Source: Opitutales bacterium
GTDB lineage: Bacteria > Verrucomicrobiota > Verrucomicrobiia > Opitutales > JBHJGM01
Direction of reading: 5' to 3'
DNA length: 64,000 nt
Assembly (NCBI GenBank): GCA_050331595.1
Contig: JBHJGQ010000006.1
Location: forward strand, 1,049-65,048
Of this stretch, positions 16,532 through 19,002 are shown piece by piece; positions within the stretch are counted from its first letter, which is position 1; each line of letters opens with the position of its first letter. A program made the translations under genes and the position numbers. The notes beneath the pieces were generated by a model. It had not been told where the DNA came from and did no database searches. It saw only the letters and a list, made by a program, of their open reading frames with translations.

Positions 16532-17467
16532 TCAGTGGCCTTGCAGACGCTGCAGGCGCTCCTGGATGAGGGACAGGTAACGTTGCTGCGCGTCCTCGGG
16601 CAGAAAGCTCTGGCCGATGACGGGCCGCCACTTCGGCAGGCTGTCGACCAACCGCGCCAGGGTCTTGTCGACCACTTTGTCCGGAAGCCCGCAGCGTTCT
16701 TTGCCCAGGTAATCCACCAGCAGCTGCCGGGTGAAGCGGCTATTCTTGCCGCTCAGAGGCAGGGCGCTTTCGATGGCGTTGTCCAGGACCAGCGCCGTGC
16801 AGAGAAAGTCGTAACAAGGACTCAGGCGGTAGGTGCCGCGCTCCGCCCAGACGGAATAATTTTTGAGGTGCATGTCGTCGTTGCCGACCACCCAATTGAA
16901 GAGAAAGCGCTCATAAAAACGCGCCTTTTCAACTACCGGGAAGGTGCAATAGCGCTCGATCAGCTGGATCACGCGTTCGACGGAGGCATCGTACTTGGTC
17001 TCGCGCGATTCTCCGGCCAATTGTGCGAAATCCTCCACGTGCCGCCGGTTTTTCTGGCCGTGGCGGTCGAAACGGCGGATCCAGAAAACCAGCGACGAAC
17101 CATTGGCCCACAGCAAGCCGTGGTCGGGCACCTCCAGACCCAGCAGCGCTGCCAGTTTCAGCGTCAGGTCTTCGTTTTCGGGCAGGTCGGGGTAGGCCGG
17201 ATTGGGCGGCTTGAGAATGAAACGCCCGCCCGTATCCACCACCTGCATCCGTTGCCGGGCAACCTCCAGCACCGCGCTGAGCTTGGGTTGGACGCCCTGA
17301 ATGGACATGCGCGTGGCGCGCCGGGCGGCCTCCTGCAGGAGCGTTTCCGGGCTGAAGGGCAGAACGTCCAGGCGTTCCAGGCGCGGGTGCAGCCGCCGCA
17401 GCCCGGCCTGCGAGTAGCGGGTTTCACCTTTTTGCAAGGGCGCGTAGGTGATGGGACAACGCTGCAT
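16532..17467 (-). CDS. hipA: HipA-family Ser/Thr kinase toxin (HipT-like, lacks N-subdomain 1)
   Basis: MSIQGVQPKLS Gly-rich loop, FILKP, ENEDLT, RRFDR, EDFAQL, GNDDMHLKNYS, LSPCYD. Confidence 0.93.
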   Translation of the reverse strand: MQRCPITYAPLQKGETRYSQAGLRRLHPRLERLDVLPFSPETLLQEAARRATRMSIQGVQPKLSAVLEVARQRMQVVDTGGRFILKPPNPAYPDLPENEDLTLKLAALLGLEVPDHGLLWANGSSLVFWIRRFDRHGQKNRRHVEDFAQLAGESRETKYDASVERVIQLIERYCTFPVVEKARFYERFLFNWVVGNDDMHLKNYSVWAERGTYRLSPCYDFLCTALVLDNAIESALPLSGKNSRFTRQLLVDYLGKERCGLPDKVVDKTLARLVDSLPKWRPVIGQSFLPEDAQQRYLSLIQERLQRLQGH

Positions 17468-17793
17468 CAGGATGCCGCCTCCACGCGGACGTCGCCCACC
17501 AGATCCGTGCCGACCGCCACCAACTGGTCGAAGTAGTCGTAGCGGTCGAGCTTGAGGGTGCGCAGGAGCGCGTCGAGCTGAGCGCCTTCAGGAAGCAGGC
17601 CATCGAAAAAAGGCGGGAAGTGCGTCCAGGCGTAGGGGTCCGCGCGCACGGGCAGGCTCAGGGAAACGGGTGGGCCAGCGTAGGCCTCGGCGTAGGCAAA
17701 GCAGTAGCTGCCGTCCTCGAGCCGTTCCAGGTGACCGGCGAGGACATCGCTCTTGAGTACACGGGCCGAACGATGGCATGGCGGCGCGCTCAC
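17467..17793 (-). CDS. HipA N-terminal domain protein (HipS-like)
   Basis: AGHLERL..GSYCFAY...PVSLSLP...FPPFFDGLLPEG...DLVGDV. GTG start overlaps the HTH stop (GTGA); its TGA overlaps the kinase ATG. Confidence 0.88.
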   Translation of the reverse strand: MSAPPCHRSARVLKSDVLAGHLERLEDGSYCFAYAEAYAGPPVSLSLPVRADPYAWTHFPPFFDGLLPEGAQLDALLRTLKLDRYDYFDQLVAVGTDLVGDVRVEAAS

Positions 17794-18008
17794 GTCAGAT
17801 CGATGGAGGCGTCGCGGTGCGGCAGGTGCGCCTGAAGACGGATGTTGAGCACGCGGCAAACGGCCTGAATCGTCGCAAAGCGCGCCGTCACCCGATTGTT
17901 CTCCAATTGCCAAATCGCGGTCGTGCCCACGCCCGAGAGTTCGGCGAGTTGCCGCTGCGTCAGCCCGGCCGTCTTGCGGGCCTCTGCGATGATGCGCCCA
18001 ATGGTCAT
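17790..18008 (-). CDS. XRE/Cro-CI HTH regulator (HipB-like)
   Basis: IAEARKTAGLTQRQLAELSGVGTTAIWQLE. Confidence 0.9.
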   Translation of the reverse strand: MTIGRIIAEARKTAGLTQRQLAELSGVGTTAIWQLENNRVTARFATIQAVCRVLNIRLQAHLPHRDASIDLT

Positions 18009-18242
18009 TGTCGCTAAAACGATAAAATGGTCAATTTACTGGATTTGTCGAGTTTGAATGCAGGCAGTCTGGCTAAAAATATCGTTAAAGCAGAAAATTC
18101 GGCTATTTTGCTCGATGCGCAGCGCCTTCAGGGTTCAGTGTAGCCAAAAACATCGCTTTTACGATAAAAATTGAGGAACTGGTGCGTTCCTCGTGTCTAA
18201 GGCTTCTAGAACCAGATAAAATATCGTTTAAGCGATGTTTTC
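18005..18242. repeat. Array of four palindromic repeats (AAAWATCG-N6-CGATAAAA) with exact 71-bp period
   Basis: TCG cores at 18011, 18082, 18153 and 18224. Intervening segments of about 45 bp are dissimilar. Confidence 0.8.
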
Positions 18243-18263
18243 GTGTCGCTTCCATCGAACACT

Positions 18264-18306
18264 CCCGCTACACGTCGTCGTGATTGCCTCGACGACGTGT
18301 AGCGGG
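18264..18306. terminator. Perfect 17-bp hairpin downstream of phoU (terminator or REP-like)
   Basis: CCCGCTACACGTCGTCG, 9-nt loop, CGACGACGTGTAGCGGG. No clear U-tract. Confidence 0.55.
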
Positions 18307-18315
18307 TCACCAAAC

Positions 18316-19002
18316 CTACGCGTTGGGGCGGATGGATTCGCGGGCGGCTTCGCCGCCGTAGCGCACGTCTTCGCCGCTGAGCAGGAAGATAACCTCCTCG
18401 GCGATGTTCTTGGCGTGGTCGCCGATGCGCTCGAGGGAGCGGGCGACGAAAATCAGCTCGATGGCCTGGTCGCAGAGGTGCGGGTTGTCGACAATGACCT
18501 GCTTGTAATGCTCGCTGGTTTCGCGATTGAGCGCGTCGATCTCTTTGTCGCGCATGGGGATGGTGAGGGCCTTTTCCAGGTCCTCCTCGATGAAGCTGTC
18601 GAGCGCGTCGCGCAGCAGTTCCAGGCTCATCTCGGCCAGTTCGGGCAGGCGGTAGGTGCTTCGCGGGGGGTGGCTCAGGGAGAGGGCGCGGGCGCGTTTG
18701 GCGATGCCGGTGGCCTCGTCGCCGACGCGCTCCAAATCGTGCGAGGCTTTCATGGCGGTGGTGAGCAGACGCAGGTCGGAGGCGACCGGCGAGCGCAGGC
18801 TGATGTAGCGGATGGACTCGCGGTCGATGGTCAACTCCAGCGAGTCGACGGCGGCGTCCATGTCGATGACTTCGCTCGCCAGTTCGGCATCGGCTTTCAC
18901 GAGGGACTCGATGGCGAGGCGGGTGACTTCGATGGTCAGCTCACCCATGCGCACGAGGTTGGTGCGCAGGCTTTCGAGTTCGTTGTGGAAGTAGCGTCTC
19001 AC
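18316..19002 (-). CDS. phoU: Phosphate signalling complex protein PhoU
   Basis: PVASDLR, DLERVGD, LERIGDHAKNIAE. Confidence 0.97.
   Translation of the reverse strand: MRRYFHNELESLRTNLVRMGELTIEVTRLAIESLVKADAELASEVIDMDAAVDSLELTIDRESIRYISLRSPVASDLRLLTTAMKASHDLERVGDEATGIAKRARALSLSHPPRSTYRLPELAEMSLELLRDALDSFIEEDLEKALTIPMRDKEIDALNRETSEHYKQVIVDNPHLCDQAIELIFVARSLERIGDHAKNIAEEVIFLLSGEDVRYGGEAARESIRPNA

Follow-up and report, generated by a model that had tools for sequence, protein, structure and literature searches.

The closest described counterpart of the locus analysed here is the HipBST toxin–antitoxin system of Legionella pneumophila, in which three 18-nt operators with 6-nt inverted repeats lie upstream of hipB and are separated by gaps of 53 bp (2023 mBio, PMC10653801). 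In the EMSA experiments of that paper, HipB shifted 50-bp fragments only when they held a complete site, and HipT, as well as HipS together with HipT, supershifted the HipB–DNA complex; two of the operators, O2 and O3, are asymmetric (PMC10653801). The oligonucleotide table places O1 at nt 9–26 of the 0–50 fragment and O2 across the 100/101 boundary, which gives an O1 start at −42, an O2 start at −113 and a start-to-start distance of 71 bp (PMC10653801). The authors describe the shifts as stepwise and graded, with possible intermediate occupancy, in contrast to the cooperative binding of Escherichia coli HipB; they further state that the Legionella-type motif is absent in E. coli O127, and their Fig. 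S4C aligns the operators of 28 species (PMC10653801). HipB of E. coli O127 represses its own promoter, and the available passages of the paper that reports this describe no operators (PMC10627512).

The hipBA system of E. coli K-12 differs from HipBST systems in having an undivided HipA and in using HipB itself as antitoxin. The operator consensus in K-12 is TATCC-N8-GGATA. As at the present locus, four palindromic HipB operators lie upstream of hipB and serve autoregulation (PMC4150777, PMC6581861), but their arms are 5 nt long around a longer centre (PMC10653801, PMC4150777), and the gaps measure 10, 21 and 10 bp (PMC4150777) rather than the 53 bp found here. The hipAB locus of Shewanella oneidensis likewise has four palindromes with a 6-nt centre (GTGTA-N6-TACAC), equal gaps and one site extending into the hipB frame, although its 34-bp gaps, 50-bp period, motif and two-gene organisation set it apart (PMC4150777).

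The hipBST operon and its upstream region

The window, by which we mean the whole 64-kb stretch of DNA analysed, comes from an Opitutales-type (Verrucomicrobiota) genome of 3.08 Mb in 32 contigs with a completeness score of 100%. It carries hipB, hipS and hipT on the minus strand (Table 1), and because these HTH_3, Couple_hipA and HipA_C genes each overlap their neighbour by 4 bp, we take them to form one operon. As read from the sequence, hipS starts at a GTG that shares bases with the stop codon of hipB (GTGA). Among solved structures, L. pneumophila HipBST is the top match of all three proteins; HipT of E. coli O127 matches the window HipT at only 5.8e-29, far below the 2.7e-84 of HipT(Lp).

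Table 1. Positions of the hipBST genes, the palindromic sites and the intervening features, numbered along the window
Feature	Position	Strand	Description
hipT	16532..17467	−	311-aa HipA_C kinase toxin; Pfam HipA_C 2.5e-46; HipT(Lp) 8ezr 2.7e-84, residues 1–308
hipS	17467..17793	−	108 aa; Pfam Couple_hipA 8.7e-23; HipS(Lp) 7vkb_B, 3.9e-28
hipB	17790..18008	−	72 aa, Xre-type HTH; Pfam HTH_3 4.6e-11; best solved relative HipB(Lp) 8ezt, 5.1e-9
Predicted operator O1	18008..18025	−	TTATCGTTTTAGCGACAA; terminal base = A of the hipB start codon; position retained in L023 and L024
O2–O1 gap	18026..18078	−	53 bp; ACTCGACA common to the window and L023; TTGACC hexamer not conserved
Predicted operator O2	18079..18096	−	TTTCTGCTTTAACGATAT; left arm degenerate, likewise in L023
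O3–O2 gap	18097..18149	−	53 bp; sequence unconserved, identity to relatives 0.49–0.55 against shuffled means of 0.46
Predicted operator O3	18150..18167	−	TTATCGTAAAAGCGATGT
O4–O3 gap	18168..18220	−	53 bp; terminator-like hairpin at 18173–18192, its T-run being the O3 flank
Predicted operator O4	18221..18238	−	ACATCGCTTAAACGATAT; distal fourth site, present in L024 and lacking in L023
17-bp perfect hairpin	18264–18280/18290–18306	−	loop of 9 nt; located 9 bp past the phoU stop; no T-run following

The operon lies directly downstream of pst-phoU and in the same direction, with PhoU encoded at 19002–18316. The 307 bp between phoU and hipB contain, in order toward hipB, the 17-bp hairpin and then O4, O3, O2 and O1, and they form an AT-rich island of 35–49% GC in surroundings of ~65% GC. 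Both this island and the perfect hairpin on the far side of the array had been described in an earlier, sequence-only reading of the window, and both are borne out.

The 17-bp hairpin probably marks the end of the pst-phoU transcript and stands outside the array. We considered a dispersed repeat family as its origin and rejected it, the hairpin being present in a single copy in the genome; one relative from the same genus (L023, see below) has an unrelated hairpin at the same position. In addition, the O4–O3 gap holds a terminator-like hairpin on the minus strand with a 7-bp stem and a 6-nt loop, followed by a T-run that is also the T-tract flank of O3. This hairpin would place O4 upstream of a possible pst-phoU terminator. 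A hairpin like it is not evident in the other relative, L024.

Four palindromes at an exact 71-bp period

Directly upstream of hipB we observe four 18-bp palindromes of the TTATCG-N6-CGATAA type, each flanked by runs of T or A. The sequence-only reading had reported four imperfect palindromes with an exact period, and our recomputation returned identical values, with TCG starts at 18011, 18082, 18153 and 18224 and spacings of 71, 71 and 71 bp. It had also placed the proximal copy at the HTH start codon, which agrees with an O1 that includes the first base of the hipB ATG, at 18008, and it had called the intervals mutually dissimilar, which agrees with an identity of 0.51–0.60 among the three gaps, similar to that of shuffled spacers in between-genome comparisons (means 0.46–0.49). 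Its interval length of ~45 bp has to be corrected, however, since all three gaps between the 18-mers measure 53 bp.

Against the degenerate pattern TTAYYG-N6-CRRTAA, the four sites match at 11, 10, 10 and 9 of 12 positions, O2 (10/12) and O4 (9/12) being weak sites; the sites of the relatives reach 10–12 of 12. Exact ATCG-N6-CGAT occurs twice in the window, both times within the array. Allowing up to one mismatch, TATCG-N6-CGATA has 28 sites in the 3.08-Mb genome, of which three belong to the array and the others are scattered singly. In composition-preserving shuffles of 18006–18315, four sites matching at least 9 of 12 positions with equal spacing (±1) arose in 2 of 100000 cases. When the spacing condition was dropped, 464 of 20000 shuffles yielded four such sites, so that the number of sites is in itself weak evidence in AT-rich DNA. 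A chance origin of the evenly spaced array is unlikely.

The region 18006–18315 is free of letter differences, insertions, deletions and joints in four DNA runs of one study, one of which may be the source of this DNA; no RNA run was found to contain the region. In the runs X1 and X2, a contig matches O1, at about 18011, and then continues into sequence resembling the O2–O1 gap of the L024-type relative, so that these samples may also contain another strain of the genus.

Conservation within the genus

Two other genomes of the genus, represented by loci L023 and L024, carry hipBST at the same place after phoU, with HipT proteins 67–69% and HipB proteins 62–76% identical. L024 has four sites, at −231, −159, −88 and −16, and L023 has three, at −161, −89 and −17, with a phoU-proximal hairpin in place of O4. 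All eight gaps of the three genomes measure 53–54 bp. The sequences of these gaps are 0.49–0.62 identical between genomes, compared with shuffled means of 0.46–0.49, whereas the operators are 0.61–0.79 identical. The only short element shared between gaps lies in the O2–O1 gap, where ACTCGACA occurs in both the window and L023. The sites and the gap lengths are conserved in the genus while the gap sequences have been randomised.

The array resembles that of Legionella HipBST in its position upstream of hipB in a hipB–hipS–hipT operon, in the short HipB that follows it (76 aa there, 72 aa here), and in its 18-nt sites, 53-bp gaps and 71-bp period; in both arrays, a site consists of 6-nt inverted arms flanking an AT-rich centre of 6 nt. 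Some sites are asymmetric in both, and the Legionella proteins are the closest solved relatives. Unlike the Legionella array, it has four sites instead of three, the fourth being common to one of the two relatives; its arms are TTATCG/CGATAA in place of TTACTG/TTACCG, with a recognition helix changed to match; and O1 overlaps the start codon, as opposed to lying 24 nt upstream of it. On these sequence grounds, we identify the window array as a homologue of the Legionella HipBST operator array that shares all of its structural features except the arm sequence. The TTATCG arms read as a specificity variant of the Legionella-type operator.

Predicted operator arrays of other HipBST loci

For the wider survey, HipT relatives were collected from representative genomes (74 loci) and, at E ≤ 1e-40, from 34 of 401 genomes of the phylum. 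Loci were retained if HipB matched on the same strand and its start could be assigned, which left 59 non-redundant hipB upstream regions. Seven loci without a settable start near the HipB match (L048, L054, L066, L067, L071, L083 and L094) were dropped, as were loci without a same-strand HipB match within 700–800 bp of hipT, the near-duplicates L044 and L075, and upstream regions shorter than 200 nt. Chains of sites were traced upstream from O1 by a best-site rule, in a seed-based and a pattern-based form; these chains replaced a motif-free lag histogram, which was too noisy because palindromes yield off-register inverted matches.

A class A O1 (TTAYYG-N6-CRRTAA) is present in 34 of the 59 regions. 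Even spacing of palindromes, for which the sequence-only reading had proposed to test homologous hip loci at a period of ~70 bp, is indeed found there, but the ~70-bp period holds for only part of them: 18 of the 69 class A spacings measure 70–72 bp, another 43 measure 60–62 bp, and class B arrays run at 40–41 bp. The other eight class A values (31, 33, 47, 52, 53 and three of 55 bp) come mostly from weak 9/12 sites or a mis-registered O1 (L029, L098 and L099); for L029, the seed-based chain gives 61 and 62 bp. A class B O1 (TATACCC-N4-GGGTATA) is present in 15 regions, with 19 spacings of which 13 measure 40–41 bp, five 80–82 bp and one 52 bp, the 80–82-bp values arising because the best-site rule skips a middle site. 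The remaining 10 of the 59 upstream regions have neither a class A nor a class B O1; in two of them, L097 and L100, we placed a third motif, GCCTGATA/TATCAGGC, by hand at about 72 + 72 bp.

Class A sites matching at least 10 of 12 positions occupy 96 of 8118 positions in the 260 bp upstream of hipB, against 94 of 162540 elsewhere in the same loci, and are thus ~20 times denser there. The Legionella O1 is letter-identical to the O1 of L025 and L026. The design of an 18-bp site plus a 53-bp gap is not peculiar to Legionella; Verrucomicrobiota, Bacteroidota, Ignavibacteriota and Chlamydiota have HipBST systems that share it. In other Verrucomicrobiota, a more distantly related HipBST clade (L105–L125), with HipT proteins 33–39% identical, has class B operators at a 40–41-bp period and the HipB helix GLRFIRELEQGK. 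The upstream region of hipB in L120 (G163) shows spacings of 52 and then 41 bp, its gaps differing by 11 bp, and no other array of the survey clearly combines good sites with gaps of unequal length.

Among members of a clade, the spacing varies by no more than ±1 bp even though the gap sequence drifts. From one clade to another, the difference is about 10, 11 or 30 bp per gap, and the values of 40.6, 52, 61.2 and 71.3 bp fit 4, 5, 6 and 7 turns of about 10.2–10.3 bp. In a HipT tree of 58 rows, obtained with a quick IQ-TREE search, the 61-bp class forms one clade (SH-aLRT 98) and the 41-bp class another (SH-aLRT 99), with the 70–72-bp class as the paraphyletic remainder. As only three label changes are needed on this tree, there were few independent spacing events and kinship explains much of the regularity; the helical-turn fit is post hoc and derives from those few events, and it should be read with caution.

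The motif of the palindromes changes with a helix of HipB. The helix GKTVIYDIEKGK pairs with TTACYG in the Bacteroidota loci and others, as well as in Legionella HipB and the Legionella O1; G(T/K/R)TA(I/V)W(Q/E)LE pairs with TTATCG in the genus of the window; GLRFIRELEQGK pairs with TATACCC; and SRSVVQDLEAGK pairs with GCCTGATA. The covariation of palindrome and HTH recognition helix, which had been suggested as a check on homologous loci, is therefore found, with four motif types that each have their own helix sequence across loci. From general knowledge of Xre/Cro-type domains, we presume that the covarying residues lie in the recognition helix. Because of this covariation, we attribute the palindromes to HipB and not to a different regulator. 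Operator sequence and recognition helix evidently changed in concert on several occasions.

Predicted repression by HipB

We consider it very likely that the four palindromes are operators through which HipB represses its adjacent hipBST toxin–antitoxin operon. This reading draws on the homology to the EMSA-proven Legionella operators, with the same 18-nt sites and 53-bp gaps, on the retention of sites and gap lengths where the gap sequence has been lost, and on the covariation of motif and helix. The same three lines of evidence favour the proposal of the sequence-only reading that HipB operators are held at a fixed distance, whereas the wrapped complex that it pictured, in which every 71 bp would hold one HipBST assembly, is a conjecture from the quantised spacing. 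Taken alone, the array would be an ordinary toxin–antitoxin autoregulatory region with a geometry already published for Legionella.

A HipB dimer, with its Xre/Cro-type HTH, would sit on each 18-bp TTATCG-N6-CGATAA site between the flanking T/A tracts. O1 overlaps the start codon and hence presumably the transcript start, where a bound dimer would shut off hipBST. No Shine–Dalgarno sequence fits between O1 and the hipB start, and the overlap of O1 with the start codon therefore implies either that the mRNA is leaderless, or nearly so, or that transcription starts at O1; both ways, expression would be blocked by a dimer on this site. O2 follows one gap upstream, such that O1 and O2 would bracket the likely promoter, and O3 and O4 would extend the array.

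The O2–O1 gap probably holds the hipBST promoter. In the 61-bp clade, strong conservation in this gap marks an element, AATTGcTTG ... TAttTTTAC, that extends into O1 and that we take to resemble the Bacteroidota −33/−7 promoter type, so that O1 and O2 appear to bracket the promoter there. By analogy, the same arrangement is plausible for the window array. An earlier suggestion had been a −35-like TTGACC hexamer beside the proximal copy. The hexamer does exist, at 18034–18029, and is the sole match of a sigma-70 scan, but its −10 partner, GACAAT, lies over the start codon, and the hexamer is unconserved in L023 and L024; on both counts, we rejected TTGACC/GACAAT as the hipBST promoter.

The quantised spacing, at roughly whole turns of about 10.2 bp, suggests a same-face cooperative assembly. 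A fixed, quantised centre-to-centre distance would set each HipB dimer on roughly the same DNA face as the next, and these dimers, or the HipS–HipT units that they carry, may act together by looping or wrapping. Extended to several phyla, where HipB operators stand at ~4, 5, 6 and 7 × 10.2 bp with free gap sequence, the idea of a same-face looped or wrapped assembly in which HipS–HipT units may meet is one that we put forward tentatively, as a possibility short of probable. If it is true, the four-site array of the window would be the longest version in the survey, and a repeat nearer 10.2 than 10.5 bp is what would be expected of DNA wrapped on a protein surface. The spacing changes only by steps of about one helical turn, and if this phasing is functional, it would offer a handle on how the load of toxin and antitoxin on HipB feeds back on transcription. 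In the literature searched, we did not find a link between HipB operators and helical phasing.

Alternative explanations

The same operators could be bound by HipB independently, with a 71-bp spacing that was inherited from an ancestral duplication and is mechanically meaningless. We regard this as a real though not a probable explanation, and for the role of the distal sites, independent, non-cooperative binding is a serious alternative. It accords with the graded EMSA shifts in Legionella, for which the authors favour intermediate occupancy over cooperativity (PMC10653801), and with period classes that follow clades and require three changes on the HipT tree. It accounts less readily for the genus, in which gap sequences are near random identity and yet all eight gaps keep to 53–54 bp, for the 43 spacings of 60–62 bp in the Bacteroidota clade, and for changes of about 10, 11 or 30 bp per gap, which lie near whole helical turns.

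We consider it very improbable that the palindromes are sites for a different regulator, such as one linked to the pst-phoU operon, and that their adjacency to hipBST is accidental. In each of the three genomes of the genus, the array does have phoU on one side and hipB on the other, but related arrays lie upstream of hipBST in other phyla with different neighbourhoods, the motif changes with the HipB recognition helix, and the remaining TATCG-N6-CGATA sites of the genome (at most one mismatch) occur singly and scattered.

A last proposal, that the array is transcribed and processed into roughly 71-nt repeat-spacer RNAs serving the toxin module, has next to nothing left in its favour, although the layout of repeat and dissimilar interval is regular and the folding energy of the minus-strand RNA is more favourable than that of shuffles (z = −3.47). 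The repeats are imperfect, with O2, O3 and O4 matching O1 at 12–13 of 18 positions in the better of the direct and reverse-complement comparisons; neighbouring copies pair as inverted repeats and are not near-identical direct repeats; and the fold excess is due to O4–O3 and O2–O1 pairing, as expected of any repeated palindromes. A search of the region against Rfam gave no fitting family, its snoRNA match (E = 0.16) being at chance level, and the homologous Legionella sites are protein-bound DNA operators (PMC10653801). The array shares with CRISPR arrays only the regular alternation of repeat and interval at a period close to 70 bp; it differs in that its repeats are not identical direct repeats, it is stable across the four runs, and no Cas1 was found in the genome. 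The earlier statement that cas genes are absent holds as far as Cas1 (PF01867), the only one sought, which was not found in this 100%-complete genome by a search that was positive in 7 of 14 control genomes.

Similar palindromes in metagenomes

A metagenome scan for two TTATCG-N6-CGATA sites 52–57 bp apart returned 31 loci, of which 30 had no HipB, HipS or HipT match and were set aside. It thus added no further examples of the TTATCG variant upstream of HipBST. Among these 30 loci are tandem repeats of 17 and 24 bp, dense clusters formed by other palindromes, and two arrays whose period is 73–74 bp. These two arrays, on the metagenome contigs L140 and L164, contain four to seven copies of the 18-bp TTATCG-N6-CGATAA palindrome, and the contig DNA searched gave no HipB, HipS or HipT match. 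The sole HipB-like match of the scan, L161 (640–860), has TTATCG-type palindromes between divergent Xre-type HTH genes of 103 and 67 aa, without hipS or hipT. We rejected it as a further HipBST example; it is probably another kind of switch with a half-site resembling that of the window array.
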